Shown in pieces: positions 111 to 58,633 of a stretch of DNA of 64,000 nucleotides. Position 1 is the stretch's first letter, and each line of letters opens with the position of its first letter. Where the stretch lies: the sequence record KC801932; one strand, given 5' to 3'. The notes beneath the pieces were generated by a model. That model was given only the letters and a program-made list of their open reading frames with translations, was not told the DNA's origin and made no database searches. The DNA comes from Escherichia phage Lw1. A program made the translations under genes and the position numbers.

Positions 111-497
111 TTATGCCTTTGGGACAACACCGAATGCCAGAAGACCCATACGATGATCGTTATCTGCCTCTTCACGGAAGAAATAGTATTGTTCATCGGA
201 AATATCGATTACGGTGATACCCTCTTTCAGATACGGCAACAGATATAACGGGATCAGCATCAAATCAGATTCACTGCTCCATTTACGGAAACCCAGATTT
301 TCCATTTCTTCCCGCGTCAAATCATTAGGATCTACCGGAAAGAAATTAGGCGATTTCATCAGGCGACCAGGAAGGTCACGAATATTGCTGATTGCGAATT
401 CCGTTCCCCATGAAGTGTATTCAATAGGTTCGGCGGCACGGGTTGCGGTAGCAACGAGAATCATTTGGCACAGTTGAAAAGTATTTGGATTGCTCAT
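111..497 (-). CDS. hypothetical protein (128 aa)
   Basis: ORF track; start overlaps stop of upstream NUDIX gene (ATGA coupling). Confidence 0.5.
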   Translation of the reverse strand: MSNPNTFQLCQMILVATATRAAEPIEYTSWGTEFAISNIRDLPGRLMKSPNFFPVDPNDLTREEMENLGFRKWSSESDLMLIPLYLLPYLKEGITVIDISDEQYYFFREEADNDHRMGLLAFGVVPKA

Positions 498-907
498 GAT
501 ATAGATCCCACAAGTTTAGTCAGAAGGTGTCCCATAGTCTTACGCGCATGATCGCGGATTTCGCTATAAGGAACATATTTGAAACCATCCATTTCTGTTA
601 TAGTTCGACCATTCTTAACGAAGGTTGACGCACAGAAACATTTTTCGGCTTCGGGGTAAGTATCGCCTTTGTAGACAAACAATGCAAGTTTTTTCTTGTT
701 TGTATAGTCCAAAACACCCAGGCTGATCAGTTGGTCGGGGAACACTTCAAAGCCAGTTTCTTCGAAGCATTCACGAATAGCAGCATCAATATGGGCTTCG
801 CCTTTTTCAACATGCCCCTTTGGGATATCCCAGTGGGGCGTTTCGGTAGCGTGACCCATTAGAATGCTGCCGTTATTCAGAAAGAGAATACCAGCAGACA
901 ATTCCAT
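494..907 (-). CDS. NUDIX hydrolase
   Basis: Nudix box GHVEKGEAHIDAAIRECFEETGF; start moved to internal ATG at 907 (MELSAGILF..., GGAG-like SD upstream) because the ORF-track start at 1057 would overlap the neighbouring gene. Confidence 0.7.
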   Translation of the reverse strand: MELSAGILFLNNGSILMGHATETPHWDIPKGHVEKGEAHIDAAIRECFEETGFEVFPDQLISLGVLDYTNKKKLALFVYKGDTYPEAEKCFCASTFVKNGRTITEMDGFKYVPYSEIRDHARKTMGHLLTKLVGSIS

Positions 908-908
908 G

Positions 909-1136
909 TTATACCCCTTTAGAGGTAAACTGTGCGTCGTATGCTGCAAGTGCATTATCTGCACGTTTTTTCGCTTCGGTATGCCCACGACTATCATTGA
1001 TAGCACGACGATACATTTCGACCCAGAATACGCGACGTGTATCTTCGTTCGCTTCAAACAGTTTAATATCGCGGTATACGTTTTGCTCTTTGATCATTTG
1101 AGCAAGTTGCAGGTCATGTTCGGTTTGGAAAGTCAT
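909..1136 (-). CDS. hypothetical protein (75 aa)
   Basis: ORF track; tightly packed in minus-strand operon. Confidence 0.45.
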   Translation of the reverse strand: MTFQTEHDLQLAQMIKEQNVYRDIKLFEANEDTRRVFWVEMYRRAINDSRGHTEAKKRADNALAAYDAQFTSKGV

Positions 1137-2626: not shown

Positions 2627-3148
2627 TCACGAACTCTCGCCGCGATGTTCGATGTGCTCCGTGATATCCTCAACAGTCTTATCAAGGTCCAGAGATTCAG
2701 CATCTTCCTTGATAATAGTCAAATCTACAGGCAGTGTCAACAGTCTTTTCACTCCGCTGATATCTTCGATACGAGAATCATACGCAAGGGTAACATGCGG
2801 TTTGTAGTTGTCAAAATCGTAAGTCGCTCCGGCATCCATCGCATCATTGAAACGGCTATGCAGATAATCAGACTCCAGAACACCGACGATAGTGTTACCG
2901 TATTTTGTGTCCCACTTCTCTACGTCAACCAGTCGGGCAGGTTCAGAGATACCAGAGGCAGGGAACAAATCAACCGTCTTACGGCTATACACAATCGTTG
3001 TATGAAGTTTTTCAGCAGACACCGGATTCTCTACACCCAGAAGTTTTTGCACTTGTGCAAGCGCTTCACAGGAAGCCTGATCGAACTTCGCACACATATA
3101 GATCCCCGAATCAACTACGGGTTTCGCAACTTCAATAAAACTTTTCAT
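2627..3148 (-). CDS. acb1: 2H phosphoesterase-fold protein, Acb1-like (anti-CBASS cyclic-oligonucleotide phosphodiesterase candidate; T4 gene 57B position)
   Basis: Two H-x-T motifs (HTTIV at His49, HVTLAY at His118) typical of 2H phosphoesterases; lies immediately next to 57A and gene 1 as 57B does in T4; SD GGAG before ATG 3148. Confidence 0.6.
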   Translation of the reverse strand: MKSFIEVAKPVVDSGIYMCAKFDQASCEALAQVQKLLGVENPVSAEKLHTTIVYSRKTVDLFPASGISEPARLVDVEKWDTKYGNTIVGVLESDYLHSRFNDAMDAGATYDFDNYKPHVTLAYDSRIEDISGVKRLLTLPVDLTIIKEDAESLDLDKTVEDITEHIEHRGESS

Positions 3149-27996: not shown

Positions 27997-30336
<2,340 letters not shown>

Positions 30337-30354
30337 ATTAGAGGAAATTCTATA

Positions 30355-32346
30355 ATGGCTTTACAATCTCCAGGTATTGAAACCAAAGAAACATCGGTAC
30401 AATCTACCGTTGTTCGAAATTCAACTGGTCGCGCTGCCATTGTTGGTAAATTTTCATGGGGGCCAGCTTATCAGATCCGTCAGATTTCTAACGAAGTCGA
30501 ACTGGTAAACTATTTTGGTTCCCCAGACAACCTAACCGCTGATTATTTCATGAGTGCTGTTAACTTCTTGCAGTACGGTAATGATCTCCGTGTGGTTCGT
30601 GTTGTCGATAAAGATGCCGCAAAAAACGCAAGCGCAATTTTTAACCAGATCAAAACAACCATTGCTTCGCAGGGTTCCAACTACACCGTTGGCGACGTAA
30701 TTAAGGTAAAATATAGCAACAACGTAGTTGAAGAAAATGGTAAAGTGTCAAAAGTTGACAGTAACGGCAAAATCCTTGCGGTAGTCATCCCAAGCGAAAA
30801 AATCGTTGCTCGTGCAAAACAGATCGGGACTTATCCAGATATTTCTACTGGCTGGACTACTGAAATCGTTTCTCAGTCTTCTGGTGTGTCTGCGTCAATC
30901 ACGATCGATGGTATCGAAAGCGATTCTGGTATCACTCTGCTGAACCTGGATATTGCTAAAGAAACCATTCAAGGAACTGCGTTCCAGACACTGACCCAGA
31001 AATACCAGATCCCATCTGTTGTGGCTCTGTATCCTGGCGAACTGGGTTCTACTGTAGAGGTGGAGATTATCTCCAAAGCTGCTTACGATTCTGGCGCTAT
31101 GATTTCCGGTTTCCCTTCTGGGATCTCCGTTAAAAACAGCGGTCGCTCTGTGATGACTTATGGTCCACAGACCGAAAACCAGTACGCTTTTGTTGTGCGT
31201 CGTGGTGGTATTGTACAAGAATCTTTCATCGTGTCAACAGAAAAAACCGACAAAGATATCTACGGCGTAAACATCTATATGGATGACTTTTTCGCTAACG
31301 GTGGTTCACAGTACGTATTCGGTACTTCTATGAACTGGCCTAAAGGCTTCTCCGGTATTCTAGAATTTGGTGGTGGTTTGTCCTCAAACGACACCGTAGG
31401 CGCTGATGAACTGATGACTGGTTGGGATATGTTCGCTGATCGCGAAGCCCTTCACGTCCCGCTGCTGATTGCTGGTGCTTGTGCTGGTGAAACCGTAGAA
31501 GTAATGTCTACTGTTCAGAAGCATGTTATCTCGATCGGTGACGAACGTCAGGATTGTACTGTGTTTGTATCGCCTCCGCGTTCTCTTCTGGTGAACATTC
31601 CTCTTGCTCAGGCAGTGGATAACATCGTTGAATGGCGTATGGGATATACAATCAGTGGTAACACTCCGGTAGACAACAACCTGAACGTAAGTTCAAGCTA
31701 TGGCTTCCTGGATGGTAACTATAAATATCAGTATGATAAATACAATGACGTGAACCGCTGGGTTCCGCTGGCAGGTGATATCGCTGGCCTGTGTGTTTAC
31801 ACTGATAGCGTTGCGCAACCGTGGATGTCTCCGGCTGGTTACAACCGTGGTCAGATCCGTAACTGCATTAAACTGGCTATTGAACCGCGTACTGCACACC
31901 GTGACGCGATGTATCAAGTTCAGATTAACCCGGTAACAGGTTTTGCAGGTGGCTCTGGTTTCGTTCTGTTCGGTGATAAAACACTGACTAATGTTCCGAG
32001 TCCGTTCGATCGTATCAACGTTCGTCGCTTGTTCAACATGATCAAGAAAGACATCGGGGATAACGCGAAATACAAACTGTTTGAAAACAACGACGATTTC
32101 ACCCGTGCTTCGTTCCGTATGGATACTGGTCAGTACATGACGAATATTCGTGCGCTGGGTGGTTGCTATGATTACCGTGTAATCTGCGATACCACGAACA
32201 ACACGCCGGATGTAATTGATCGTAACGAGTTTGTAGCGACCATTTACGTGAAACCGCCACGTTCTATCAACTACATCACTCTGAACTTCGTAGCAACGTC
32301 TACAGGCGCAGATTTCGATGAATTGGTAGGGCCACAAGCCGTATAA
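30355..32346 (+). CDS. 18: tail sheath protein gp18
   Basis: 663 aa, strong similarity pattern to T4 gp18. Confidence 0.95.
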   Translation: MALQSPGIETKETSVQSTVVRNSTGRAAIVGKFSWGPAYQIRQISNEVELVNYFGSPDNLTADYFMSAVNFLQYGNDLRVVRVVDKDAAKNASAIFNQIKTTIASQGSNYTVGDVIKVKYSNNVVEENGKVSKVDSNGKILAVVIPSEKIVARAKQIGTYPDISTGWTTEIVSQSSGVSASITIDGIESDSGITLLNLDIAKETIQGTAFQTLTQKYQIPSVVALYPGELGSTVEVEIISKAAYDSGAMISGFPSGISVKNSGRSVMTYGPQTENQYAFVVRRGGIVQESFIVSTEKTDKDIYGVNIYMDDFFANGGSQYVFGTSMNWPKGFSGILEFGGGLSSNDTVGADELMTGWDMFADREALHVPLLIAGACAGETVEVMSTVQKHVISIGDERQDCTVFVSPPRSLLVNIPLAQAVDNIVEWRMGYTISGNTPVDNNLNVSSSYGFLDGNYKYQYDKYNDVNRWVPLAGDIAGLCVYTDSVAQPWMSPAGYNRGQIRNCIKLAIEPRTAHRDAMYQVQINPVTGFAGGSGFVLFGDKTLTNVPSPFDRINVRRLFNMIKKDIGDNAKYKLFENNDDFTRASFRMDTGQYMTNIRALGGCYDYRVICDTTNNTPDVIDRNEFVATIYVKPPRSINYITLNFVATSTGADFDELVGPQAV

Positions 32347-43942: not shown

Positions 43943-44506
43943 ATGTTGAACCATGAATGTTTGAAAGATTTAAGTGACGGTAAAGAGATCGGGAACGTTA
44001 TATTTCTCGATATTGATGGAGTTCTAAATAATATGCGGTCTATGAAATTCGGTGAACATATGGACATCGAATGTGCGCGACACTTGCGCCGGATCGTGAA
44101 CCATGCAGATTGTGATATCGTTGTTTCTTCAACATGGCGTATAGGAAACACGACACACAACCTACGTGAAATTCTGTACCCCTGGGGGCTTTATCGCGTT
44201 ATCGGTCGAACTTGTAGTAATATGCAGGGTGCTTACCAACGTGGGGATGAAATCAAGGCATGGATCGACGCTTTCGGATGTAAGAATTATCTTATTCTGG
44301 ATGATGATCGCGACATGTTACAGGAACAGAATGAACACTTCATTCGAACCGATCCTTACATTGGGTTGACAGAAGAACAATCAACCTTTGCGATCCGTAA
44401 TATATTTGGAATAACGACCCCGTTTTGTCCTGAATGCAATGGCTACGGGCGCGTGAATGAATATGATAAATGCGGTAGCTGCAACGGTAAAATTTTACGT
44501 CTATAA
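43943..44506 (+). CDS. HAD-superfamily hydrolase with C-terminal zinc ribbon
   Basis: Motif I FLDIDGVL, motif ILDDD; C-terminal CPECNGYG...CGSCNGK. Confidence 0.6.
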   Translation: MLNHECLKDLSDGKEIGNVIFLDIDGVLNNMRSMKFGEHMDIECARHLRRIVNHADCDIVVSSTWRIGNTTHNLREILYPWGLYRVIGRTCSNMQGAYQRGDEIKAWIDAFGCKNYLILDDDRDMLQEQNEHFIRTDPYIGLTEEQSTFAIRNIFGITTPFCPECNGYGRVNEYDKCGSCNGKILRL

Positions 44507-45587: not shown

Positions 45588-46055
45588 CTAGGCTATTTTT
45601 CTTATTTCTTTCAAGGCTTCTTCTTTGCTTCCAACGAAGAGGATCGCTTTACCTCCGGCTTTTCTGAATGGCAACACGGCTTTTGCTCTGTCGTCTATCA
45701 GTATGCCCTGGCTCGCGTAGGCTGCTTTGTCTTTGCTGCTTTTGGTGTAGTGGAATTCAGGTAAGTATCCCAATTCTCTCAACAGCGCTTTTTTCTTCTG
45801 TTCTGCTACTTCTTCTGAATCATACTTCCCAACACTGGTCAAGATCGCAACCTGTCCCAATGTTTTCAGGTGGTGGAACAATTCAAACCCTTCTTTTAAA
45901 GGTTTCAGGTTTTCGTAGAAGTCGGTTTTTGCGATTGCTTGTTTAGCCTTTTTCAGTTCTTCTTCTGGCATTCTCGCCGGATCACCATACATCGGTATGA
46001 AAGAACCTTCCCAATCAAACAGTACACCATCCATATCAAAGAAAAACTTATTCAT
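45588..46055 (-). CDS. HAD-superfamily 5'(3')-deoxyribonucleotidase-like hydrolase
   Basis: Motif I FFDMDGVLFDW, motif ILIDD; start at ATG 46055 (MNKFFF...) with GAGGAA SD. Confidence 0.6.
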   Translation of the reverse strand: MNKFFFDMDGVLFDWEGSFIPMYGDPARMPEEELKKAKQAIAKTDFYENLKPLKEGFELFHHLKTLGQVAILTSVGKYDSEEVAEQKKKALLRELGYLPEFHYTKSSKDKAAYASQGILIDDRAKAVLPFRKAGGKAILFVGSKEEALKEIRKIA

Positions 46056-46104: not shown

Positions 46105-46938
46105 TCAACCCCATGTATCGGTTTTAGGTGCGTATGCTGCAACTTTAGCCACTAATTCCTTATCAAGCTGATCAATGGATTTCTGCGGTTTGCCTTTTGC
46201 CTTAACTTTGATGTAATTAGACTTGACAACGAACATACCGCCTTTGTCGGATTTCTTAACTTCGCTATCAATACCAACTTTGTTAAAGCTGATCCAGATG
46301 TCACCATCCATGTACTGTTTCAGAGAATCGCCCATGTTAAGGATCTTAGCCATAGTAAGCGCGGCCCCTTCGTGGGTATCCATGAGGATCTCTTTTGGAA
46401 CAACACGGTCGCGTTTCAGGTTCTGCTGCATGGCAATATGAACATCGTTCATTACCCAAACGATATGGATGTTTTCTTTCTTGTACCCCAGCGCTTCAAC
46501 ATCACGGGCGATACTTGCCAGTTTGCTCATGCTTTTCAGGGTTACGTCAAAAATCAGGTTTGGTTTGCGATCTTCCGGTGCTGCTGCGATACCAGCATAA
46601 ACACGCGCCTGGTTTTTGTTTGATACGTTGAAAACGTCTGCGATCACATGGTGAAGTGTTGCAACGTTATCAGGGTTTTTCAGGTTCATTGTTTTAACGT
46701 CATGACCTGTTTTTGCTTTAATTTCTGCTGCTAGTTTGGTGCTACCCATTACCAGCTTTTTCAATGCGTCAACGTCCAGTGTGATCCCTTCGATGCCTAA
46801 CAGCTTTTCGAGAGTGAAGCCTTTACCGGAACCCGCACCGCCAGCCAGGATCACGACCTGACCGAATTTCTGATAAGCCTTACCGCCGAAGGTAATCAGC
46901 GCTTCATCAAGGCTCACAAAGTCTTTGAATGATTTCAT
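46105..46938 (-). CDS. protein with CTS-like N-terminus and glycine-rich nucleotide-binding loop (candidate packaged P-loop enzyme)
   Basis: N-terminus MKSFKDFVSLDEA resembles capsid targeting sequence; VVILAGGAGSGKGFT loop; GGAG SD. Confidence 0.6.
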   Translation of the reverse strand: MKSFKDFVSLDEALITFGGKAYQKFGQVVILAGGAGSGKGFTLEKLLGIEGITLDVDALKKLVMGSTKLAAEIKAKTGHDVKTMNLKNPDNVATLHHVIADVFNVSNKNQARVYAGIAAAPEDRKPNLIFDVTLKSMSKLASIARDVEALGYKKENIHIVWVMNDVHIAMQQNLKRDRVVPKEILMDTHEGAALTMAKILNMGDSLKQYMDGDIWISFNKVGIDSEVKKSDKGGMFVVKSNYIKVKAKGKPQKSIDQLDKELVAKVAAYAPKTDTWG

Positions 46939-47944: not shown

Positions 47945-47980
47945 CTGTAAGCTGTAATCACTGAAAACAAGGAGATAACC

Positions 47981-48298
47981 ATGAAAACGATTCACTGCCG
48001 CGAAGAACACGTTGTTTATTACCACGGATCTTGTACTGCTGCTGGGATTGAGAGCATGTTGTTGCCTCCTTGTGCTTCTGAAACTCTGTCTGAAAAAGGC
48101 AGAAAGAAAAATCTGGATCGTGTTTTCTTCACTGCTGACATCGGACTTGCTCGGATCTATGCTGGAAGGGCTGCACGTTCTATAGGTGGTGATCCGGTAC
48201 TGTATCGGGTTGTGTGTCCGGTTGATGCTGTATGTATGAACGACGACAAAGGCGCGAGCGTTTACCATGCTGCATGGGCTTTCTGTGAGGAAGTATGA
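47981..48298 (+). CDS. small Arr-like ADP-ribosyltransferase-fold candidate (105 aa)
   Basis: VYYHGS ... RVFFTADIGLARIYAG ... LYRVVCPVD resembles H-G-S/T, Y-F-S/T and hydrophobic beta-strand elements of rifampin ADP-ribosyltransferase (from memory, not searched). Confidence 0.45.
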   Translation: MKTIHCREEHVVYYHGSCTAAGIESMLLPPCASETLSEKGRKKNLDRVFFTADIGLARIYAGRAARSIGGDPVLYRVVCPVDAVCMNDDKGASVYHAAWAFCEEV

Positions 48299-48462
48299 AT
48301 GACCGTGTTTTAGCAGTTCTCGTTTTCCTTCTGGGTTATCGAGTTGAAGTAATGGGTGGTATCATGGCGATGGACGGTGACCTGACCGCAATTTGGGTTA
48401 CTGCTTTAGGTGTGATGTTCACGTTTCTTTCTTTTGCGATTGTTAACGAGGCAAACAAATGA
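48295..48462 (+). CDS. small membrane protein candidate (55 aa)
   Basis: ATGA overlaps with both neighbours; hydrophobic segments LAVLVFLLGY and IWVTALGVMFTFLSFAIV. Confidence 0.35.
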   Translation: MNDRVLAVLVFLLGYRVEVMGGIMAMDGDLTAIWVTALGVMFTFLSFAIVNEANK

Positions 48463-48785
48463 AACTATTTCATGTAGTGTATGGCGGTATACGTAATCTT
48501 GATGTACCATTGCTTGCTGCGGGAACAGTTGATACACTTGAAGGTAAGATCGGGAAGCGTTTTAAAACTACCGTATCCGAAATCAAAACGGTGTTTGTTG
48601 ACCATCCGTCAGATATGGAAAATTTAATCAATACTCTGGATGACTTGATGATTCCGTTTGCGGAAGAATTTCATTATCAATCAGGACTGTATTTGATTGT
48701 GACATTTGTTCTAAAAAATGTTGACAATCGAAATCCAGAAGTGTTAGATTTTGTAAGAAAAATCGATTCAATTAAAGGAAAGTGA
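48459..48785 (+). CDS. hypothetical protein (108 aa)
   Basis: ORF track, translational coupling. Confidence 0.5.
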   Translation: MKLFHVVYGGIRNLDVPLLAAGTVDTLEGKIGKRFKTTVSEIKTVFVDHPSDMENLINTLDDLMIPFAEEFHYQSGLYLIVTFVLKNVDNRNPEVLDFVRKIDSIKGK

Positions 48786-49126
48786 TTATGAAAATCGTTC
48801 AGCGTAATATCAGCGAAGTTAGCCAGGAAGAAAAAGTTCAGATTCATTTCAAATTTAATGATCTGAAACGTGGTTATGCAGAAATTGCCCGTGTTCATGG
48901 GCTGGACAATGGGGATATTTATATGATTGTCCAAGAAATTGAGCGAATTCGTGCTTTCCGTGCGGAGAACCCGAAAGTAAAACGCGTTCTGCGTCGTGTA
49001 TATGTCAACAAACACCGCAAAGCGGCGAAACAAGTTAAAACCAAACGCGAACCGCGTCCAGATAACAAACGTAAAGCAATCAACGGTGCTATGGCGCTGG
49101 CTTTCCAGGAAGCGGGTTTAGTGTAA
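48782..49126 (+). CDS. hypothetical basic protein (114 aa)
   Basis: ORF track; K/R-rich C-terminus. Confidence 0.5.
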   Translation: MIMKIVQRNISEVSQEEKVQIHFKFNDLKRGYAEIARVHGLDNGDIYMIVQEIERIRAFRAENPKVKRVLRRVYVNKHRKAAKQVKTKREPRPDNKRKAINGAMALAFQEAGLV

Positions 49127-49135
49127 GGGGCTGAC

Positions 49136-49666
49136 ATGAGTCGTAGACAAAATATGGAACGTTGGACTGGTGTTGTAACCAGCAGTGTTAAACCAGTTAC
49201 CGCTGTAGTGAAAGAAGTTGTTGAAGAAACTCCGGTTAAAACTCAGATGGTTATTTCTCTGAGTGATGAAGAGTTAGAGCATCGTCGCCGTGCGAATCAA
49301 ATTGAATTCGATCTGCGTATCGCTCGTTCATACAACAGCAAAAATGATGATGCTCGTAGCCGGAATCTGCAATTTGCTCTTACGTTGAGTGATTGGACCT
49401 CTTTAATGAGTCAACCAACTTGCTTGTATTCTGGGAAGGTGTTTAGTTCTCGTGGAGATAGCCCGAATTCTCGAACGATGGAACGAATTAACCCGATGCT
49501 GGGTTACACTCCAGAAAATACGATCGCAGTGACAAAAGCCGCTAACAGTGAAAAATCATCACTTGATGCGTTTATGAAGGGTTCGGTAATCCTTCCAGAA
49601 GTAAAACTGAAACTGTTACGCAAAGCCGCGTATCAAATTGAAAAACAATTGAAAATCAAAGGTTAA
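49136..49666 (+). CDS. hypothetical protein with degenerate HNH-like C-terminal motif
   Basis: ERINPMLGYTPENTIAVTKAANSEKS resembles HNH_3-type motif lacking the canonical His pair. Confidence 0.4.
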   Translation: MSRRQNMERWTGVVTSSVKPVTAVVKEVVEETPVKTQMVISLSDEELEHRRRANQIEFDLRIARSYNSKNDDARSRNLQFALTLSDWTSLMSQPTCLYSGKVFSSRGDSPNSRTMERINPMLGYTPENTIAVTKAANSEKSSLDAFMKGSVILPEVKLKLLRKAAYQIEKQLKIKG

Positions 49667-49670
49667 TATT

Positions 49671-50717
49671 ATGTTTGTGAAATATTCTTCTCTTACTAAC
49701 CATTACGAAGGTAAGTTCATTAATGGCGTGATCATGAATGGCCTTACTGGTGGTGTGTGGTGTGCTCGTGAAAAGATACACGGTACAAACTTTAGTCTGA
49801 TTACTTCGGACGGTGAAAAAGTCATTCCAGCAAAACGTAGCGGTGAAATCCTTCCTACTGAACAGTTTTACGGTTGTGAACCTGTCGTTGCAAAATATTC
49901 TAATGCTGTGCGCGAGTTGTGGGAAACCCTCGCAAATACCTGTGAATATAAGGAATACGCTGATATCGGTTCTCTGGTTGTACAGGTATACGGCGAATTT
50001 GCGGGGCGTGGTGTTCAAAAAGATGTTGATTACGGAGAAAAAGATTTCTATGTATTCGATATCCGTGTGAATGATAAATTTTTACCAGATAACATTGTTG
50101 CATCGGCTGCTGTTTGTGTTGGTTTGAAAATGGCTCCATTGCTGGCATATGGTACGTTTGAAGAGATCCGCGAACTGCCTATCACGTTTGATTCTGTTGT
50201 CAACCTGGCTAATTCCGGCGCAATTGTTGCGCAAAATGGCGTTGAACCTGCGTTCAAAAACTTCATGACTCTGAAAGATGGTGAAGGTGAAAACATCGCG
50301 GAAGGTTTCGTGATGAAGCCCGTCGAACCTGCTTTCATGCCGAACGGTGAACGCGTTGCGATCAAATGCAAAACGACGAAGTTCACAGAGAAGAAGAACA
50401 AGCAAGCGAACCGCTTCAATGCTCCTGTTGAACTGTCTGAAAATGATAAAGTTAAACTGGATGTGTTTACCTGTTACCTGAACGAAAACCGCGTGAAAAA
50501 TGTTTTGTCTAAAATTGACAGCGCAAATCTCACTGCAAAAGATTTCGGTCGCGTAATGGGCCTGACGGTACAGGATGCGCTGGAAGAAATCGAACGTAAT
50601 TATGGCCCGTTCCTGGAACAGTTCGAGAATCCAACGCTGGCGAAGAAAACCTTCACTAACGAAGCGTCAAATCTGGTTCGTGAGAACTGGGGCGCAATCC
50701 TGAACAATGAATTTTAA
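49671..50717 (+). CDS. rnlB: RNA ligase 2 (RnlB)
   Basis: MFVKYSSLTNHY..., REKIHGTNFSL (ligase KxHG-type motif I), GEFAG.GVQK, RVAIKCK, GRVMGLTVQD closely parallel T4 Rnl2. Confidence 0.9.
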   Translation: MFVKYSSLTNHYEGKFINGVIMNGLTGGVWCAREKIHGTNFSLITSDGEKVIPAKRSGEILPTEQFYGCEPVVAKYSNAVRELWETLANTCEYKEYADIGSLVVQVYGEFAGRGVQKDVDYGEKDFYVFDIRVNDKFLPDNIVASAAVCVGLKMAPLLAYGTFEEIRELPITFDSVVNLANSGAIVAQNGVEPAFKNFMTLKDGEGENIAEGFVMKPVEPAFMPNGERVAIKCKTTKFTEKKNKQANRFNAPVELSENDKVKLDVFTCYLNENRVKNVLSKIDSANLTAKDFGRVMGLTVQDALEEIERNYGPFLEQFENPTLAKKTFTNEASNLVRENWGAILNNEF

Positions 50718-51291
50718 AACGGTTCTGGACAACGCGAAGACGGCTACCCTGATCGGTAGCCGTGAACCCCCCGAACGTATCGCAAACCTCGCAATCAAGA
50801 TCGGACGCGCTTTAAGTGATCGGGAAATATTCGCTTACTCTGGTGGTGCTCCAGGAATGGATAGTCATTTTTTATTTGATTACTCACCAGAAAGACGGCG
50901 TATAATTCTTCCTGAGAACGGTTTTAACGGGTTGTACTCAAATGGTAAGGATATCATCGACTATACAGAATACGACACGTACAAAGCCGCTGACGAAGCG
51001 AGAAAGGTAGCTGGACACTTCGACAACCAAAACGAATGGACACAGCGCCGATATGCTCGAAATTCCATGCAGGTGCTAACCGAACATCTGGATACGCCTA
51101 CGGATTTTGTGTTATTCTGGGCTGTTGAAAAAGAGTTTTGTGTGAAAGGCGGTACTGCGATCGCAGTAAGATTGGCCCGACTGTATGGCATACCCTGTTT
51201 CAATCTCTGGAATGAACGGGTATTAAATGAAGTTTGCGACACTTTGGGGATTAATACTAAACCTCCAACTTTGGATTTTCTCTGGTGCTAA
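50707..51291 (+). CDS. SLOG/DprA-like Rossmann-fold protein
   Basis: YSGGAPGMDSHF motif reminiscent of DprA/LOG-type nucleotide-binding fold. Confidence 0.45.
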   Translation: MNFKTVLDNAKTATLIGSREPPERIANLAIKIGRALSDREIFAYSGGAPGMDSHFLFDYSPERRRIILPENGFNGLYSNGKDIIDYTEYDTYKAADEARKVAGHFDNQNEWTQRRYARNSMQVLTEHLDTPTDFVLFWAVEKEFCVKGGTAIAVRLARLYGIPCFNLWNERVLNEVCDTLGINTKPPTLDFLWC

Positions 51292-51357
51292 CTCCTGAAC
51301 AATCACGTAATTACGAACGCCTCGCAGTTGAAGAGGCATTAAAAAAGGCGGAATATA

Positions 51358-51786
51358 ATGGTAGAAATCAATGGGATCGGGGTAGTCGGTGTAACCCCCG
51401 CAAATCGCAGTCAAAAGGATGATCCGCGCTGTGGGCGTAGTCCAACACTGGCAGAACGTGCGCGTAAGCTGGTAGACGACATGAACGCGAAGATGGTCGA
51501 AGAGTCGCGGAACGATATCACGGCGTATGTTCTGAAATATGCGACAAAACAATCATATACATTTGATATGAAACGTTTTGTTGGTGCTAATTTAGGTCAA
51601 GAATGCACACAAAAAGCATACGATGATCTGGGTGAATGGCTGAAATCAGAAGGGTTGACTTTTGATACTATGGCGAACCGTCTGAATGCGTATTCGAATT
51701 ATCCGAGTGGAATCCGTTCTCGTCGTATTCAGACGAGTAATGATCGCGACGTGTACAGCGAATTCACTTACTTCATCACTTGGTAA
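51358..51786 (+). CDS. hypothetical protein (142 aa)
   Basis: ORF track. Confidence 0.5.
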   Translation: MVEINGIGVVGVTPANRSQKDDPRCGRSPTLAERARKLVDDMNAKMVEESRNDITAYVLKYATKQSYTFDMKRFVGANLGQECTQKAYDDLGEWLKSEGLTFDTMANRLNAYSNYPSGIRSRRIQTSNDRDVYSEFTYFITW

Positions 51787-51805
51787 AAATAATTCGAAAT
51801 AGTTG

Positions 51806-51833
51806 TTGACGGGAGTTGTGAGTGTGGTAATAT
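51806..51833 (+). promoter_or_regulatory. sigma70-type promoter (TTGACG - 16 nt - TAATAT, TG at -14) embedded in inverted repeat acgggag/ctcccgt
   Basis: Upstream of ORF 51874; stem arms at 51809-51815 and 51837-51843. Confidence 0.45.
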
Positions 51834-51873
51834 AGCTCCCGTAGATAAGACACTAACCCAAAAGGAAAACATC

Positions 51874-52143
51874 ATGGAAATCAGATTAATCCCTACTTGC
51901 GCTGGTTACTGCTTGGCCCTGAACGGCGTAGCAAACAACGGCAAAGGCTTACGGGCTAACGTTGAAGCAATGCTGAACGAATTAGCGTTGCGGAGTGAAC
52001 CAGGGATGCAGTATGAGTATGATGACGTTGCAACCAGCGTTAAAATCTCTAATTTGGTTTTGGACGGTGTTGACTGTGCGGGTTGGTGGGACTGTTACAT
52101 CGACTACACTGACAACCGGGTTTTCTTATTGACCAGCAATTAA
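51874..52143 (+). CDS. hypothetical protein (89 aa)
   Basis: ORF track. Confidence 0.5.
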   Translation: MEIRLIPTCAGYCLALNGVANNGKGLRANVEAMLNELALRSEPGMQYEYDDVATSVKISNLVLDGVDCAGWWDCYIDYTDNRVFLLTSN

Positions 52144-52151
52144 GGAATATC

Positions 52152-52565
52152 ATGAAAGATTATATTTCAGAAGCTGAGGCTCTTGAACAAAGCGGTTATT
52201 GTGTCAACGTCGAAGATGAAGACGAAGATGACGGCTATGATGGTGGTGTTATGTGGGGGCTTAAACGTCCTCAACGCAAAACCCCAGTTCAGTATTCCGA
52301 TGGTTCGGTAAGATACGAAACGGTTGTCAAAGAAGTAAACGGGCGTGTCATTACGTCCGAGCGACAGAAGGACATCAAACAGTTGTATGATGTTGCGAAA
52401 GCCGCTAAAGTGGGAACCATGATTGTTTGCCCTACGTGCAAAGAGTTGCACAATAAGACGACTTATCACAAGGTGTTCTGCTCTAATGGCAAAAAATCCA
52501 GGAAAGACTGTAAGAGTAAATACTGGAACACGATCCATCCAGAACGGTTAGATCGTATCTTTTAA
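52152..52565 (+). CDS. hypothetical protein with C-terminal Cys cluster (137 aa)
   Basis: ORF track; CPTCKELH...C..G. Confidence 0.5.
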   Translation: MKDYISEAEALEQSGYCVNVEDEDEDDGYDGGVMWGLKRPQRKTPVQYSDGSVRYETVVKEVNGRVITSERQKDIKQLYDVAKAAKVGTMIVCPTCKELHNKTTYHKVFCSNGKKSRKDCKSKYWNTIHPERLDRIF

Positions 52566-52588
52566 ATCAAAACGTGGAGTACGTTTAA

Positions 52589-54022
52589 ATGCAAAAATTT
52601 ACTGAACTGAATAGCCTGATCACCTCAACTGATTCCTACAAAGTGTCTCACTGGATGCAGTATCCACAAGGCACTGATGCAACGATGTTCTATATCGAAT
52701 CTCGTGGTGGTAAATTTGATGAAGTCGTAACTGCTGGCGTTAACTACGTTGCGCGGGTACTGGCTGAACCTGTTACCATGAAACAAGTTGAGTTGGCGCG
52801 GGTGCTTTACCGTAAGCACTTCGGGAAAGAAATTTTCAACTATGAAGGATGGAAAGAGATCGCAGAACTGGGTTACACCCCTGTGATTTTCCGTTCTATT
52901 CCAGAAGGTACAGTTGTTCCGGTTAAAAACGCCGTTGCGACCGTGTTCTCTGAGAATCAATTCTCCTGGTTGGCTGGTTGGTTGGAAACAATGACGATTC
53001 GCGGTATCTGGTATCCGTCATCTGTTGCGACTCTATCCCGTGAGTGTAAAAAGGTTCTGGCTCAGTACCTGAATATGACTTCTGACCTGACTGGCGAAGC
53101 ATATAATGTTACACTGGGTACACGTCTGCATGACTTTGGGGCGCGGGGCGCGACCTCTGCTGAGTCTGCGGGTATTGGTGGGCTGGCGCACCTTTACAAC
53201 TTCGTTGGAACTGATACCGTCGAAGGGATGATTATGGCAATCAGCCTGTTTGCGGATCATCAGACTCTGTTTGATGAACTGGAAAATGTCGAAGCCGCTG
53301 GCATTTCGATTCCTGCTCGCGAACACTCAACGACGATTTCCTACGGTAAAGAAAACGAAGAAGACGCATACAAAAACAGCATCAAAATGTTCGGTACTGG
53401 GTTCTACGCTTGTGTGTATGACTCATGGGACTATAAAGCCGCTGTTGATCGCATTGCTGAGTATAAAGAGAAAATCATTGCTGCGGGTGGTACTCTGGTA
53501 GTTCGTCCAGATTCAGGGGATATGATCGATAACATCATGTATACCCTTCGTAAATTGGCGCAAATTTTCGGATACACCGTAAACAGCAAAGGTTATAAAG
53601 TTCTGCATAACGCAGTTCGTATCATCCAGGGCGACGAGATCCACGGGCCTGAGACAATCAACCGTGTGTTAAGCTGGATGGAAGCGAACAAGTGGTCAAG
53701 CGAGAATATCGCGTTTGGTATGGGTGGAGGTTTGCTGCAAGAAGTTACCCGCGATACTCAAAAGTATGCCGAAAAGCTGTGCGCTATCCGTGTGAATGGT
53801 AAGTGGACAGGCGTTTACAAATGTCCGAAAGGTTCTGAGTGGAAAAAGAGTAAAAAAGGTTTGCTGATGACCATCACTAACGGTATGGAATTCAAGACCA
53901 TTGATATTCTGGAAGACTCAATTCCTGACGGTTGGTTCGATGCGATGGTGACTTATTACGATAATGGTTACTTGAACACCGACGACACTTTAGGGGAAAT
54001 TCGTGAGCGTAGCCGGATTTAA
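52589..54022 (+). CDS. nadV: nicotinamide phosphoribosyltransferase (NAMPT/NadV family)
   Basis: 477 aa; N-terminal TDSYKVSHW motif and overall length typical of NAMPT; GGAG SD. Confidence 0.8.
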   Translation: MQKFTELNSLITSTDSYKVSHWMQYPQGTDATMFYIESRGGKFDEVVTAGVNYVARVLAEPVTMKQVELARVLYRKHFGKEIFNYEGWKEIAELGYTPVIFRSIPEGTVVPVKNAVATVFSENQFSWLAGWLETMTIRGIWYPSSVATLSRECKKVLAQYLNMTSDLTGEAYNVTLGTRLHDFGARGATSAESAGIGGLAHLYNFVGTDTVEGMIMAISLFADHQTLFDELENVEAAGISIPAREHSTTISYGKENEEDAYKNSIKMFGTGFYACVYDSWDYKAAVDRIAEYKEKIIAAGGTLVVRPDSGDMIDNIMYTLRKLAQIFGYTVNSKGYKVLHNAVRIIQGDEIHGPETINRVLSWMEANKWSSENIAFGMGGGLLQEVTRDTQKYAEKLCAIRVNGKWTGVYKCPKGSEWKKSKKGLLMTITNGMEFKTIDILEDSIPDGWFDAMVTYYDNGYLNTDDTLGEIRERSRI

Positions 54023-54311
54023 TATCCGCGCCAACGATAACGGATCTGTAATCTTCTATAACAATCAGCCCCTTGTTGCTCGCAAGGGGTTTTTTTGTAA
54101 GCTGGTTGGTTACGGGTTCAAGTTGGAGGAAGTGGATAATTCAACTCTGAAAGAGATAGTGCGAATAGCCTATCTCCTGAAAGACAAAAAAGATGAACAT
54201 AAAGCGGTTGCAATGTTGGAGAAATTAGGCGAAACTCATTGCTTCATTATCAATCGTGGGTACAAATATGACACGATCGCTTTATTCGAAAAGGGGCTTT
54301 GTGAATTATGA
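54003..54311 (+). CDS. hypothetical ORF, start uncertain
   Basis: ORF track; 5' part contains the terminator hairpin so real start, if any, is probably further downstream. Confidence 0.25.
   Translation: MSVAGFNIRANDNGSVIFYNNQPLVARKGFFCKLVGYGFKLEEVDNSTLKEIVRIAYLLKDKKDEHKAVAMLEKLGETHCFIINRGYKYDTIALFEKGLCEL
54067..54097 (+). terminator. rho-independent terminator after NAMPT
   Basis: agcccctt...aaggggt hairpin + ttttttt. Confidence 0.65.
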
Positions 54312-55159
54312 ATTATTTGGGTGTGATTCCCTATACGGGCAACAAGCAGAATTTATTGCCTAAGTTGTTTGAACTCTTTCCAGATCGCAGACATTATCAT
54401 CGATTCGTTGATTGTTTTTGTGGTGGATTGAGTGTGTCGCTAAACGTCCCCAAACCCGTTCTAAGCAACGATTACGATAAGACACTGATTGATGTGTATA
54501 AGATGCTTAAACGCGCTCCTGATCTCTCTGAGGTGCGAGAATTGATTGCTAAGAAGGGACTGAACAAAGAAAACAAGGAAGCGTATCTGGCTTTTCGTGA
54601 AGAATACAACCAGCATCGTGATCCGTTGTGGCTATACGTTCTGATCCTTCATTCGTTCAGCAATGTCAACCGCACCAATGAGAAAGGGGAGTTTAACGCG
54701 CATTTCGGATACCGGACGATAAACACATCGACCGTGAAGAGGTTCGAACACTTCAAAAATAACGTGGCTGGAATTGAGTTTCGTTCTGGTTCATACTCTG
54801 ATATTGAAATCAACGATAACGATTTTGTTTATTGCGATCCTCCGTACCTGATAACCGATGCGGTGTATAATAAATTCTGGAACGCAGATCGCGAACGCGA
54901 GTTATATGCTTTCCTTGACTCCCTGCATGAGCGGGGCATTTGGTTTGGTTTGTCTAACGTGACGCACCATGCCGGAAAACAAAACGATATCCTGATTGAA
55001 TGGATGAAGAAATACACCGTTCATAACCTGGATAAAAAGTATCTGTTAGGGCAACACACAGAATCCTATGAGCAAAACAAAACACAGGAGGTGTACGTGT
55101 GCAACTACCAGAAACGAGAAGTAAATACATTCCCACAAACACTAGATGATTTAATGTAG
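54308..55159 (+). CDS. dam: DNA adenine methyltransferase (Dam)
   Basis: DPPY motif (CDPPYL), N-terminal SAM-binding region, size as phage Dam. Confidence 0.85.
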   Translation: MNYLGVIPYTGNKQNLLPKLFELFPDRRHYHRFVDCFCGGLSVSLNVPKPVLSNDYDKTLIDVYKMLKRAPDLSEVRELIAKKGLNKENKEAYLAFREEYNQHRDPLWLYVLILHSFSNVNRTNEKGEFNAHFGYRTINTSTVKRFEHFKNNVAGIEFRSGSYSDIEINDNDFVYCDPPYLITDAVYNKFWNADRERELYAFLDSLHERGIWFGLSNVTHHAGKQNDILIEWMKKYTVHNLDKKYLLGQHTESYEQNKTQEVYVCNYQKREVNTFPQTLDDLM

Positions 55160-55165
55160 GTTAAC

Positions 55166-55438
55166 ATGTTTAAAATTTATGGCTATATCCCTTCCGTATA
55201 CAATTGCGCTCCGTGCCTGAACTCGAAACGACTGCTGGACGCAAAGAAACATGAATATGAATTCGTATCTGTTGCTGATTCCAAAGGCGAAGACGGCAAA
55301 CCGATCCTGAATGAAAAAGTGATTGACGAACTCGAAGGTCTTTTGGGTACTCGCAAAATGACCATGCCTCAGATTTTCCACGATGGGAAACACATTGGCG
55401 GGTTCGACCAACTTCGTGAGTATGTCCGCACCCTGTGA
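55166..55438 (+). CDS. nrdC: glutaredoxin/thioredoxin NrdC
   Basis: MFKIYGY...CAPC...TMPQIF..G.HIGGFDQLREY pattern as T4 NrdC. Confidence 0.85.
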   Translation: MFKIYGYIPSVYNCAPCLNSKRLLDAKKHEYEFVSVADSKGEDGKPILNEKVIDELEGLLGTRKMTMPQIFHDGKHIGGFDQLREYVRTL

Positions 55439-55470
55439 TAAATAATGACACCTTACTGAATGGTGTTATT

Positions 55471-55953
55471 ATGCTGACGAAACGAATTACCAAAAAAGAT
55501 TACCCAACAATCAAGCAAGCTCTCTTTGACAAACAAGGGGGCTGCTGTGCTCTCTGTAAACGTCCTCTTGAGGGTGATATAGAGAAACATCACCTTGACC
55601 ATGACCATGCTTTAGACGGCGAAAACGCCGGACGTGTGCGCGGGCTTCTGTGTAACCTATGCAACGGTACAGAAGGTATTGTAAAGCACAAATTCAATCG
55701 ATCCGGTCTGGTTTCCCGTGATGTTTATTACATCGCCTGGTTAGAGAATCTGCTTGCATATCTCAAGCAAGACTATTCCGAAAACCGTATTCATGACAAA
55801 TTCATACCAGATAAGGTAAAATGGTTTTCAAGACTTACCAAACCTGATATGATTGCCGAAATGGTTTCTATGGGCTTCGAGTACGCCGACAAAGACGAAC
55901 GCAAAGCCTTAACCGCAAAATATAGAAAGCAATTAATGAAGGCAACCAAATGA
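55471..55953 (+). CDS. 49: recombination endonuclease VII (gp49)
   Basis: CCALCKR...HLDHDH..G..AG.VRGLLCNLCN..EG..KHKFNRSGL...Y..WLENLL.YLK.DY pattern as T4 endo VII; start set to ATG 55471. Confidence 0.9.
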   Translation: MLTKRITKKDYPTIKQALFDKQGGCCALCKRPLEGDIEKHHLDHDHALDGENAGRVRGLLCNLCNGTEGIVKHKFNRSGLVSRDVYYIAWLENLLAYLKQDYSENRIHDKFIPDKVKWFSRLTKPDMIAEMVSMGFEYADKDERKALTAKYRKQLMKATK

Positions 55954-58079
55954 AAGTAGAAAAGCGCGACAATACAATTGTCGATTTCGACAAAGAAAAA
56001 ATCCGTAATGCAGTGTATAAAGCTGGAGGAACATCAGACGATGCTGATGCGGCTGTAGAATCTGCTATCGGTTCGTATCACCTGGATGGTAAACCAAACA
56101 CAATTGCACGTATTCAAAGTGCTGTTGAAGAATCCTTGATGAAAACGAACCCAGCGGTCGCCCGTTCATACATTGAGTATCGCCACGATCGCGACATTGC
56201 CCGTGAACAGAAAAGCAAGCTGTTCTCTGATATCTCCGGCATGGTGAACCTGTCCAACAAAGAGATCACCAACGAGAACGCGAACAAAGATGCAAGGGTA
56301 TTCCCGACACAGCGCGATTTGCTGGCGGGTATCGTAGCGAAGCATTTCGCCCGTAATCATATCCTCCCGAAACATATCGTAGAAGCGCATGATTCCGGTG
56401 ACATCCACTATCACGATCTGGACTATAGCCCGTTCACCCCTTACACTAACTGCTGTCTGGTTGACCTGAAAGGTATGCTGGAGAACGGTTTTAAAATGGG
56501 TAACGCGGACATTGAACCGCCTAAATCGATCGGTGTTGCTACCGCTCTCATGGCGCAGATCACCGCACAGATTGCCTCTCACCAGTACGGCGGGACAACC
56601 TTTGCGAACGTGGATAAAGTGCTGGCTCCATACGTCGAAATGACATTCTTCAAACATCTGCACGATGCTGAACATTACGGTATCGAACACTATAATGATT
56701 ATGTGTATGCGATTGAAAAGACTGAAAAAGATGTGTATGATGCGTTCCAGTCCTATGAGTATGAAGTAAACACCCTACATACTGCCAACGGACAAACCCC
56801 GTTTGTTACCATCACTTTCGGTACTGGTACGAGCGATTATGAACGCATGATCCAGAAAGCGATCCTGAAAAACCGTATTCGCGGCCTTGGTAAAGAGGGT
56901 ATTACTCCGGTATTCCCGAAACTGGTTATGTTCATGGAAAAAGGAATTAACCTTGATCCAGAGGATCAAAACTATGACATCAAACAACTTGCCCTGGAAT
57001 GTGCTTCGAAACGCATGTACCCAGATATCATTAGCGCATCTAATAACCGCCGTATCACTGGTTCTAGCGTTCCTGTATCTCCTATGGGTTGTCGCAGTTT
57101 CCTTAGCGTGTGGCATGATGATAACGGTAATGAAATTCTGGATGGACGTAATAACCTTGGTGTGGTGACAATCAACCTCCCGCGCATTGCGATCGAAGCT
57201 GAAGCACAGGAAGATGAAGACGCACACGACGCATTCTGGCGCATCCTTGATGAACGTCTGGATCTGTGCTTTGAAGCCCTGATGACTCGTATCGAAAGCC
57301 TACGCGGTGTTAAAGCCAGTGTTGCGCCGATCCTGTACACAGAAGGTGCTTTTGGTGTCCGACTGAAACCGGATGATGAAATTCTGGAACTGTTCAAAAA
57401 TGGGCGTAGCTCTATCAGCCTTGGTTATATCGGACTACATGAAACACTGTTGATGTTCGGATCTGGACAACACCCATTCGATCGGGTTGGCTCCCAGAAT
57501 TTCGGTAAACATGTTCTGGAACACCTGAAAAACAAAACCGAACGTTGGAAAGCCCAAACAGGCTTTGGATTCAGCCTGTATTCAACCCCTGCTGAATCTC
57601 TCTGTCACCGTTTCTGCAAACTTGATTATCAGAAGTTCGGAAGCATCAAAGGGATCACTGATAAGGGTTGGTATACAAACAGTTTCCATCTTGACGTTGA
57701 CCGCAAGGTAACACCGTTCGAGAAAATCGACTATGAAGCCGATTATCATTACATTGCGACTGCTGGACATATCAGCTATGTAGAATTTCCTGATATGAAA
57801 AACAACCTGGAAGCACTTGAAAAAGTCTGGGATTACGCGATGGAAAAACTGGACTACTTCGGAACTAACCTTCCGGTCGATAAGTGCTTTGTATGTGGCT
57901 CTGATGACGAGTTCACGCCTACAGAAGACGGTTTCCACTGTAAGCACTGCGGTAATCACGATCCGGCTAAAATGAGCGTCACGCGCCGTACATGCGGTTA
58001 TTTGGGTGCTCCTGCTGTTCGTGGATTCAACGAAGGTAAGAACAAAGAAATGATGCACCGAACTAAGCATCAAAATTAA
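55950..58079 (+). CDS. nrdD: anaerobic ribonucleoside-triphosphate reductase NrdD (no intron evident)
   Basis: 709 aa; C-terminal CxxC...CxxC zinc site and glycyl-radical-type C-terminus (RTCGYLG). Confidence 0.95.
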   Translation: MKVEKRDNTIVDFDKEKIRNAVYKAGGTSDDADAAVESAIGSYHLDGKPNTIARIQSAVEESLMKTNPAVARSYIEYRHDRDIAREQKSKLFSDISGMVNLSNKEITNENANKDARVFPTQRDLLAGIVAKHFARNHILPKHIVEAHDSGDIHYHDLDYSPFTPYTNCCLVDLKGMLENGFKMGNADIEPPKSIGVATALMAQITAQIASHQYGGTTFANVDKVLAPYVEMTFFKHLHDAEHYGIEHYNDYVYAIEKTEKDVYDAFQSYEYEVNTLHTANGQTPFVTITFGTGTSDYERMIQKAILKNRIRGLGKEGITPVFPKLVMFMEKGINLDPEDQNYDIKQLALECASKRMYPDIISASNNRRITGSSVPVSPMGCRSFLSVWHDDNGNEILDGRNNLGVVTINLPRIAIEAEAQEDEDAHDAFWRILDERLDLCFEALMTRIESLRGVKASVAPILYTEGAFGVRLKPDDEILELFKNGRSSISLGYIGLHETLLMFGSGQHPFDRVGSQNFGKHVLEHLKNKTERWKAQTGFGFSLYSTPAESLCHRFCKLDYQKFGSIKGITDKGWYTNSFHLDVDRKVTPFEKIDYEADYHYIATAGHISYVEFPDMKNNLEALEKVWDYAMEKLDYFGTNLPVDKCFVCGSDDEFTPTEDGFHCKHCGNHDPAKMSVTRRTCGYLGAPAVRGFNEGKNKEMMHRTKHQN

Positions 58080-58085
58080 TCAAAA

Positions 58086-58115
58086 AGCCCCTTGCGAAAG
58101 TGAGGGGCTTTTGTT
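58086..58115 (+). terminator. rho-independent terminator after nrdD
   Basis: gcccct...aggggc hairpin + ttttgtt. Confidence 0.7.
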
Positions 58116-58150
58116 ATATTGCACATACCTAAACTATGAGGTATTGAAAA

Positions 58151-58633
58151 ATGATGTACTGGACAAAAGATTATTTTGAATTTCGTGATGAAGAAAGTTT
58201 TGGGACGGTGTACCGCAACTTAGCTTTGCGTGGTAGTCCTCTGTCGCCTAATCAACTATCATCTGTCGTGTTTCCAATCAAGGTAACGCACTGTGATCGG
58301 AAAGGTGTCAATGGGATCGTTGATGCCAATGGCACAACCTGGTATTCCGAAGATTCATATCTGTTTGACAACGAGGATCGCGGATTCTTTAAAAAGTTTG
58401 TCGCGCTTAAACCTGCTGTTGAAAAAGCAGACGCACAACAACTGCTGGACTGTTCGCATCTTCTGGGACGAATCTACGTAGATGGTAAACTGGTGACGAA
58501 ACCTGGTGATCTGGAAAAATTCTTGCGTAAGGCGCGGGAAACTACCCTGAAAGACACCGAAAAACGACACGTCACAGCAACCGCCGATCTACAGCGTTTA
58601 TCTGGTGAACTGAAAGTTCTGTGGGGTGAATGA
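58151..58633 (+). CDS. hypothetical protein (160 aa)
   Basis: ORF track. Confidence 0.5.
   Translation: MMYWTKDYFEFRDEESFGTVYRNLALRGSPLSPNQLSSVVFPIKVTHCDRKGVNGIVDANGTTWYSEDSYLFDNEDRGFFKKFVALKPAVEKADAQQLLDCSHLLGRIYVDGKLVTKPGDLEKFLRKARETTLKDTEKRHVTATADLQRLSGELKVLWGE

Follow-up and report, generated by a model that had tools for sequence, protein, structure and literature searches.

The nicotinamide phosphoribosyltransferase gene nadV of Escherichia phage Lw1 and its distant NMNAT/Nudix partner

Does the nicotinamide phosphoribosyltransferase gene of Escherichia phage Lw1, nadV, work by itself, or is it one half of a pathway whose other half is encoded elsewhere in the genome? The question was raised by a first-pass annotation of a 64,000-nucleotide stretch of this phage (from sequence record KC801932; hereafter, the window), which reported a full-length nicotinamide phosphoribosyltransferase (NAMPT, or Nampt) and considered it noteworthy that no partner enzyme was evident, specifically no adenylyltransferase (NMNAT) for its product nicotinamide mononucleotide (NMN). 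As presented below, nadV is very probably the Nampt half of a two-gene pathway for the reconstitution of nicotinamide adenine dinucleotide (NAD+), of the type termed NARP2 and exemplified by the NadV-NatV pair of phage KVP40, in a phage of the RB43 group. The gene in question is:

52589..54022, + strand: nadV, encoding Nampt, nicotinamide phosphoribosyltransferase, 477 aa (YP_008060764.1 / AGJ71649.1, Escherichia phage Lw1)

Identity and class of the nadV product

The nadV open reading frame (ORF) runs from its ATG to its stop through 477 codons, includes the motif TDSYKVSHW, and has a GGAG 11 nt 5' of the ATG. An exact-sequence search matched its complete product to YP_008060764.1, and the published Lw1 G+C content of 43.5% agrees with that of the window. 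In Pfam, its product matches both NAMPT_N (PF18127; E 2.5e-24, 85.8 bits against a cut-off of 25) and the NAPRTase / type II phosphoribosyltransferase (PRTase) catalytic domain (PF04095; E 7e-40, 137.7 bits against a cut-off of 20.8). It also exceeds the equivalog cut-off of NCBIfam NF006629 (459.9 bits, cut-off 405) and matches PHROG 448, 'nicotinamide phosphoribosyl transferase', with an E of 3.5e-164. Among solved structures searched by sequence, the bacterial NAMPT 7yqo is the best match (E 1.5e-105) and the mammalian NAMPT structures score E ~1e-84, with end-to-end alignments in both cases.

A pairwise alignment of Lw1 Nampt with human NAMPT gives 39% identity, and the residue numbering of the comparison rests on the human reference sequence used. 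Sixteen of the 17 human residues checked are kept, namely Asp16, Tyr18, Phe193, Arg196, Asp219, His247, Arg311, Asp313, Gly353, Asp354, Gly383, Gly384 and Arg392 (in the same order, D15, Y17, F183, R186, D209, H246, R306, D308, G348, D349, G379, G380 and R388 of Lw1 Nampt) and likewise Lys400, Lys415 and Lys423. We take Asp219 to be the nicotinamide-selectivity residue of mammalian NAMPT and His247 to be its phospho-histidine. Because the checked active-site residues are conserved, nadV is, as judged from its sequence, an intact gene for a true NAMPT, being neither a nicotinate PRTase nor a pseudogene. The first-pass annotation had named a different PRTase family and a pseudogene as the outcomes that would speak against its reading, and what was found instead are matches to NAMPT families, intact catalytic residues and the nicotinamide-type Asp. 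Its claim of a full-length NAMPT bearing TDSYKVSHW at 52589-54022 is therefore borne out by the ORF, Pfam, NCBIfam and the residue comparison alike. Relative to both bacterial and mammalian NAMPT, the protein contains an 11-residue insertion at residues ~222-237 (the DHQTLFDELENVEAAG region), which is common to the Slopekvirus orthologues and absent in an Aeromonas phage protein. As a separate matter of nomenclature, many relatives list nadV as 'nicotinate phosphoribosyltransferase', a name borne by NCBIfam NF006629 too.

Two phage pathways employ enzymes of this kind. NARP2 is defined by Osterman et al. (bioRxiv 10.1101/2024.02.11.579819) as Nampt plus Nmnat, whereas NARP1 consists of Adps plus Namat. 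Since Namat shares both Pfam domains with Nampt, Pfam alone is indecisive and the clade was tested explicitly, with the Table S2 sequences of Osterman et al. and human NAMPT as references. The identities to Lw1 Nampt were as follows:

Slopekvirus mtp7, Nmnat-associated Nampt: 74%
Aeromonas phiAS4, Nmnat-associated Nampt: 54%
human NAMPT, eukaryotic NAMPT: 39%
five Namats, Adps-associated: 27-32%

The Nampt of R10Z, a KVP40-like Schizotequatrovirus, is 45.7% identical to that of Lw1. By these identities, Lw1 Nampt falls with the KVP40-type Nmnat-associated clade and outside the Adps-associated Namat clade. In Table S2 itself, row KC801932_00235 (Escherichia phage Lw1) is classed as 'Nmnat-associated' (bioRxiv 10.1101/2024.02.11.579819); the 399 residues of this row agree exactly with the window ORF, and the next relative, Xman, shows 15 differences. 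Furthermore, RefSeq/GenBank annotates both nadV and its partner in Lw1, in RB43, in Miller and in dozens of their relatives. Given these public annotations together with the Table S2 row, Lw1 nadV, its partner and its NARP2 class are already known, and the significance of Lw1 nadV extends little beyond correct bookkeeping.

The partner gene and its conservation

The first-pass annotation was accurate in stating that the window holds no nucleotidyltransferase. Pfam scans of 40 window ORFs (all of those outside the head/tail block, plus uvsY) detected no NMNAT, as represented by the CTP_transf_like domain, and no NadR, Prs/Adps or PnuC, while a six-frame tblastn of the window with two NatV query proteins returned a best E of 0.98. 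Nor was a Prs-like Adps gene found beside nadV by Pfam or PHROG in its flanking ORFs, 52152..52565 and 54003..54311, which have no Pfam match and belong to PHROGs of unknown function.

The partner resides elsewhere in the genome. A search for a bifunctional NMNAT-Nudix gene, which the first-pass annotation had proposed as a check, identified AGJ71542.1 / YP_008060657.1, a protein of 352 aa with PF01467 and PF00293 that is encoded on the same 176,227-bp contig as Nampt and is named in the database as a putative bifunctional protein NMN adenylyltransferase/NUDIX hydrolase. Its HNGH motif and its ISST-like LSATDLR motif are both intact, as is its Nudix box (GHKNANETFLDCAIRELLEEVRI) apart from the last Gly, and its identity to KVP40-type NatV is 41-42%. 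For the natV product of Citrobacter phage Miller, the alignment to the bifunctional NMNAT/Nudix models of NCBIfam spans the whole protein (E 7e-78).

Several comparisons bear upon where this gene lies. By megablast, the window region belongs with the RB43 group of T4-like phages (Straboviridae, Pseudotevenvirus), and Citrobacter phages Xman and Miller share ~90% identity across 24 kb with the same gene order as the window. Accessions YP_008060657.1 and YP_008060764.1 are 107 apart, or ~69 kb at the Lw1 density of 1.56 genes per kb. In Miller, natV occupies 79,267-80,325 on the - strand and nadV 150,578-152,011 on the + strand, with Miller position 97,789 corresponding to window base 4. Synteny would place Lw1 natV ~17.5 kb leftward of the first window base, ~70 kb from nadV and on the opposite strand. 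The partner thus seemed to be missing because the window edge cuts it off. Pathway genes of T4-like phages are routinely tens of kilobases apart, and for this reason one 64-kb window is too small for a claim of an absent partner in such phages. Of the options that the first-pass annotation had listed for the partner, a location elsewhere in the genome proved correct, whereas host supply or replacement by a different enzyme found no support, given the canonical NMNAT-Nudix of Lw1.

The two genes are also inherited together. Megablast with the NAMPT gene yielded 63 phage records and with the NMNAT/Nudix gene 67; among the 60 records listed for each, 59 contain both, and the sole NAMPT-only record is a partial genome of 61.6 kb. 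On these counts, the nadV-natV pair is conserved across the whole genus, with the partner present and intact in Lw1 and throughout. Similarly, Nmnat co-occurs in 94% of phages with this Nampt (bioRxiv 10.1101/2024.02.11.579819), and NadM is never found in phages without NadV (Iyer et al.). The complete annotation of RB43 contains exactly two NAD-salvage genes, ORF255w (NAMPT) and ORF138c, which is described as 'similar to bifunctional NMN adenylyltransferase/nudix hydrolase' and has CTP_transf_like and NUDIX domains; no Prs/Adps, NadR or PnuC is annotated in the complete RB43 genome.

The present distance between the loci may have arisen secondarily. In Aeromonas phage GomatiRiver_11 (1..10612), a 352-aa natV-like 'cytidyltransferase', an nrdC.11-like gene, Nampt, endonuclease VII (gp49) and nrdD are co-oriented within ~10.6 kb, the NMNAT being located 5.4 kb upstream of the NAMPT on the same strand. 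Both RB43 and Miller keep natV next to nrdC.11 and nadV next to gp49 and nrdD. The linkage in GomatiRiver_11 and these retained neighbours together suggest that an ancestral linked NAD-salvage cluster was later split by rearrangement, leaving two loci ~70 kb apart in Pseudotevenvirus. In the KVP40-like Vibrio phage R10Z, there is no NMNAT within 8 kb of the NAMPT, so that genes lying apart are the norm for this pathway. Consequently, the missing partner loses its interest as an observation: Lw1 encodes an NMNAT-Nudix protein, the pair is kept across the genus, Lw1 was already listed as Nmnat-associated, and the genes are unlinked in R10Z as well.

Two other candidates for the missing activity were considered and rejected. 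The first-pass annotation had mentioned a distant NUDIX hydrolase among the neighbouring genes, and this gene does exist:

494..997, probably 494..907, - strand: single-domain Nudix, homologue of T4 nudE (e.1) and RB43 nudE (Pfam NUDIX, 2.1e-13)

However, it is 52 kb from nadV and hence not a neighbour, nor is it a split-off domain of the partner, as it is a single-domain nudE homologue that co-occurs with the bifunctional gene in RB43 and Miller. The other candidate was the nrdC.11 'nucleotidyltransferase' (RB43 ORF131c), which was rejected as a substitute adenylyltransferase, being an RNA-repair protein of the RlaP / Pol-beta type.

Two side observations concern natV in relatives. RB43 ORF138c NatV (29334..30392 of the RB43 stretch) has GKIYLRPIYDQPS in place of the GKDLSATDLRPTI of Miller and Lw1, with loss of the ISST-like ATP-binding motif; a local frameshift with compensation, or else an error of sequencing in the 2005 record, would seem to be the cause. 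In addition, natV is frequently labelled 'cytidyltransferase' or 'hypothetical protein' in relatives, and such names, like 'nicotinate phosphoribosyltransferase' for nadV, hide the NARP2 pair in automated surveys.

The proposed pathway and its rivals

On the model of the KVP40 pair, a pathway can be proposed for that of Lw1. When NADases of host defence (Thoeris, DSR, SIR2-HerA and others) or ADP-ribosyltransferases cleave NAD+, nicotinamide and ADP-ribose (ADPR) would be released. Nampt would then convert nicotinamide and phosphoribosyl pyrophosphate (PRPP) to NMN, and ATP hydrolysis is expected to be coupled to this step through autophosphorylation of His246 (human His247). The bifunctional NadM/NatV-type partner, encoded ~70 kb away on the opposite strand, would join NMN and ATP into NAD+, while its Nudix domain would cleave ADP-ribose to AMP and ribose-5-phosphate, the latter being returned to PRPP by host Prs. 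The net effect would be the rebuilding of nicotinamide and ADP-ribose into NAD+ during infection. The NadR or PncC routes of E. coli could also use up NMN, although the phage partner would presumably be the main route, since it is strictly co-inherited with Nampt.

The closest characterized counterpart is the NARP2 of KVP40, in which Nampt and Nmnat rebuild NAD+ and defeat Thoeris and DSR2 (Osterman et al., bioRxiv 10.1101/2024.02.11.579819). Lw1 and KVP40 are both T4-like Straboviridae, their pairs comprise the same two protein families with the same domain architectures, and the genes are unlinked in the KVP40-like R10Z just as they are in Lw1. The two differ in that the Lw1 proteins are ~46% (Nampt) and ~41-42% (NatV) identical to those of the KVP40 type, in that Lw1 has an enterobacterial host and KVP40 a Vibrio host, and in that the Lw1 pair is known from sequence alone. 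The KVP40 work is our basis for inferring how the enzymes act, that they would counter defences and that their expression would be early. Among bacterial systems, NadV-NadM salvage includes the closest solved structure to Lw1 Nampt (Xanthomonas NAMPT, PDB 7yqo), and the phage partner aligns full-length to the equivalog models of NadM-type NMNAT/ADPR pyrophosphatases (NCBIfam PRK05379 models). Unlike these, the Lw1 system is phage-borne, and its partner scores under the bacterial equivalog cut-offs (262 versus 397 bits). NARP1 shares the aim of rebuilding NAD+ from NADase products, and its Namat has the same NAMPT_N plus NAPRTase fold, but it differs from the Lw1 system in using ADPR-pyrophosphate (ADPR-PP) as substrate and in having a Prs-like Adps in the same operon. 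Lastly, NARP3 is likewise a route for restoring NAD+ in phages of Enterobacteriaceae, consisting of a PnuC-like nicotinamide riboside transporter and a NadR-like kinase/adenylyltransferase (Sci Adv 2026, PMC13464706); unlike the Lw1 pathway, it starts from imported nicotinamide riboside and involves no Nampt.

The assignment of nadV to a phage NAD+ reconstitution pathway, as originally suggested by the first-pass annotation, is supported by its Nmnat-associated clade, its Table S2 listing and the presence of the partner in Lw1. Several points weigh against it. Firstly, the one human NAMPT residue that is not kept, Ser275, is Ala in Lw1 Nampt, as it also is in the bacterial NAMPT 7yqo, and the Nudix box of YP_008060657.1 has Arg in place of its last Gly. 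Secondly, the position of natV is derived from protein accession order and from synteny with Miller and RB43. Thirdly, natV and nadV belong to different transcription units, a long way from each other and on opposite strands, such that their co-regulation is at most presumptive. Lastly, activity and anti-defence function would be carried over from KVP40 proteins that are just 41-46% identical. On balance, we still regard a NARP2-type function for the Lw1 pair as highly probable.

The alternative that survives best is that nadV and natV act as a general metabolic booster, raising the NAD+ pool in every infection in aid of phage replication and recycling nicotinamide set free by the phage's own NAD+-consuming enzymes, with any anti-defence effect being secondary. 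NARP2 raises NAD+ even without a defence system, because PRPP is its starting point (Osterman et al., bioRxiv 10.1101/2024.02.11.579819). A conserved ADP-ribosyltransferase (ART)-fold protein that probably uses NAD+ is encoded 4.3 kb upstream of nadV, and nadV itself is situated among genes of nucleotide metabolism (nrdC, nrdD, nrdG and dNMP kinase). The KVP40 pair, however, has a direct anti-defence phenotype (Osterman et al.), and as the two roles are not mutually exclusive, we consider a primarily metabolic role possible, yet doubtful.

A second alternative is that Nampt stands alone upon host supply, its NMN being converted to NAD+ by NadR or by PncC-NadD-NadE, while the distal NMNAT-Nudix is irrelevant or otherwise used. 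E. coli indeed has two routes from NMN to NAD+ (PncC and NadR), some 70 kb separates the two phage genes, which are oppositely oriented, and the window contains no NMNAT. Nevertheless, the partner is intact and co-inherited with Nampt in 59/60 listed genomes, in phages NadM occurs only together with NadV (Iyer et al.), and the single cluster of an Aeromonas T4-like phage, where 5.4 kb separates the co-oriented pair, suggests an ancestral linkage, all of which makes dependence upon the host very improbable.

The remaining alternative, that the nadV product is a Namat of the NARP1 type acting on nicotinamide and ADPR-PP with an unrecognised Adps-like partner, could draw upon the shared Pfam domains and the weak in vitro activity of KVP40 Nampt on ADPR-PP (bioRxiv 10.1101/2024.02.11.579819), but it can be set aside as exceedingly improbable and was rejected, given that the Adps-associated Namats reach 27-32% identity, as opposed to 39% for human NAMPT and 54-74% for the Nmnat-associated Nampts, that a Prs/Adps-like gene was neither annotated in RB43 nor found by Pfam in the window, and that the NARP1 authors themselves class the Lw1 protein as Nmnat-associated and report no phage with both NARP1 and NARP2 in their survey (bioRxiv 10.1101/2024.02.11.579819).

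With the NARP2-type reading retained, the RB43-group coliphages are of practical interest, as they lend themselves to genetic work and bring NARP2 into E. coli, whereas the KVP40 operon is uncloneable in E. coli owing to toxicity.

Expression signals and accessory genes around nadV

Upstream and downstream of nadV, two candidate expression signals were identified:

51806..51833, + strand: sigma-70-type promoter-like site (TTGACG, 16 nt, TAATAT, TG-extended), a consensus match only
54067..54091, + strand: G+C-rich hairpin with a T-run (U-tract), from the terminator scan, fold -16.7 kcal/mol

The promoter-like site is located in an 87-bp gap ahead of the gene run 51874-52143, 52152-52565 and nadV, and may be weakly proposed as a candidate early promoter. 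Sigma-70-like matches are not enriched across the region, with 21 observed and 21.7 expected from shuffles. From 46900 to 58300, the + strand is devoid of T4-type late promoters (TATAAATA), and the sole strong terminator downstream of nadV in the terminator scan is at 58083-58112, after nrdD. The promoter-like site, the lack of a late promoter and the terminator after nrdD would fit early transcription, albeit weakly; because the promoter scan is not above the shuffles, early timing is something we infer. The hairpin begins 45 nt 3' of the nadV stop and is situated within a conserved 102-aa ORF (54003..54311), which overlaps the 3' end of nadV by 20 nt. Its sequence is kept in seven relatives whose genomes are 87-94% identical, with one loop substitution in two of the seven. 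In these relatives it forms a perfect stem of 9 bp (AGCCCCTTG/CAAGGGGCT) with T6 after it, while in the window a C-to-T change at the last pair of the stem produces a G-U pair. The hairpin could possibly end the nadV message, as a partial terminator or an attenuator.

Upstream of nadV are two further genes with conceivable links to NAD+ or ADP-ribose:

47981..48298: ART-fold protein, 105 aa, PHROG of unknown function, 100% identical to Lw1_gp233
50707..51291, + strand: standalone SLOG domain of the DprA clade, 194 aa, PHROG 768 DprA-like (E 7e-62)

For both ORFs, sequence searches of PDB, Pfam and NCBIfam were uninformative, and they were resolved only through structure prediction. The 105-aa protein has 165 homologues in T4-like phages of many hosts, with at least 63% identity among the 120 listed, and its invariant residues include H15, G16, R41, F49, T51, D53, Y60, R63 and E103. 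Its AlphaFold2 (AF2) model is confident (pLDDT 85.8), its Foldseek matches have weak E values (0.024 or higher) and come from the same families, and a few of its homologues have been labelled 'ADP-ribosyl transferase' by depositors. As modelled, it is probably a minimal ART-fold protein that uses NAD+. The SLOG-like neighbour of nadV noted by the first-pass annotation is confirmed by the PHROG match and by structure: its AF2 model has a pLDDT of 95, and Foldseek retrieves DprA (E 2e-6), followed by ShosA, a MoCo carrier protein, ThsA-SLOG and LOG. The protein is without the extra DNA-binding domains of DprA and has the invariant motifs GSR, SGGAxGxD, RN and GGT. In relatives, this gene is annotated as shorter (144 aa), starting from an internal ATG.

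The rightward run at ~47-55 kb encodes the ART-fold protein, RNA ligase 2, the SLOG protein and Nampt. That this early-looking run constitutes an NAD+/ADP-ribose counter-defence island, as opposed to a random accessory mix, seems unlikely to us, and the co-location could be coincidence. It is predicted that viral SLOG domains process or sense ADPR-derived immune signals (Iyer et al.). If an island were indeed present, the SLOG protein would bind or cleave such signals, for example the cyclic ADPR (cADPR) isomers that the ThsA SLOG senses, the mini-ART would act as AcrF11 does and modify some host or defence target, and Nampt with the distal NatV would cover the NAD+ cost.

Other accessory genes of the window include an anti-CBASS gene and three genes of a nucleotide or RNA-repair flavour:

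2627..3148, - strand: Acb1 anti-CBASS phosphodiesterase, T4 57B homologue (Pfam PF23474, E 3.2e-48)
43943..44506, + strand: HAD_SAK_2 'Swiss army knife RNA repair' phosphatase (9.6e-30)
45588..46055, - strand: NT5C-like 5'-nucleotidase (8.5e-5, below cut-off)
46105..46938, - strand: zeta-toxin-like P-loop kinase (Pfam 7e-8)

The Acb1 homologue of RB43 appears in RefSeq under the name 'RNA ligase'.

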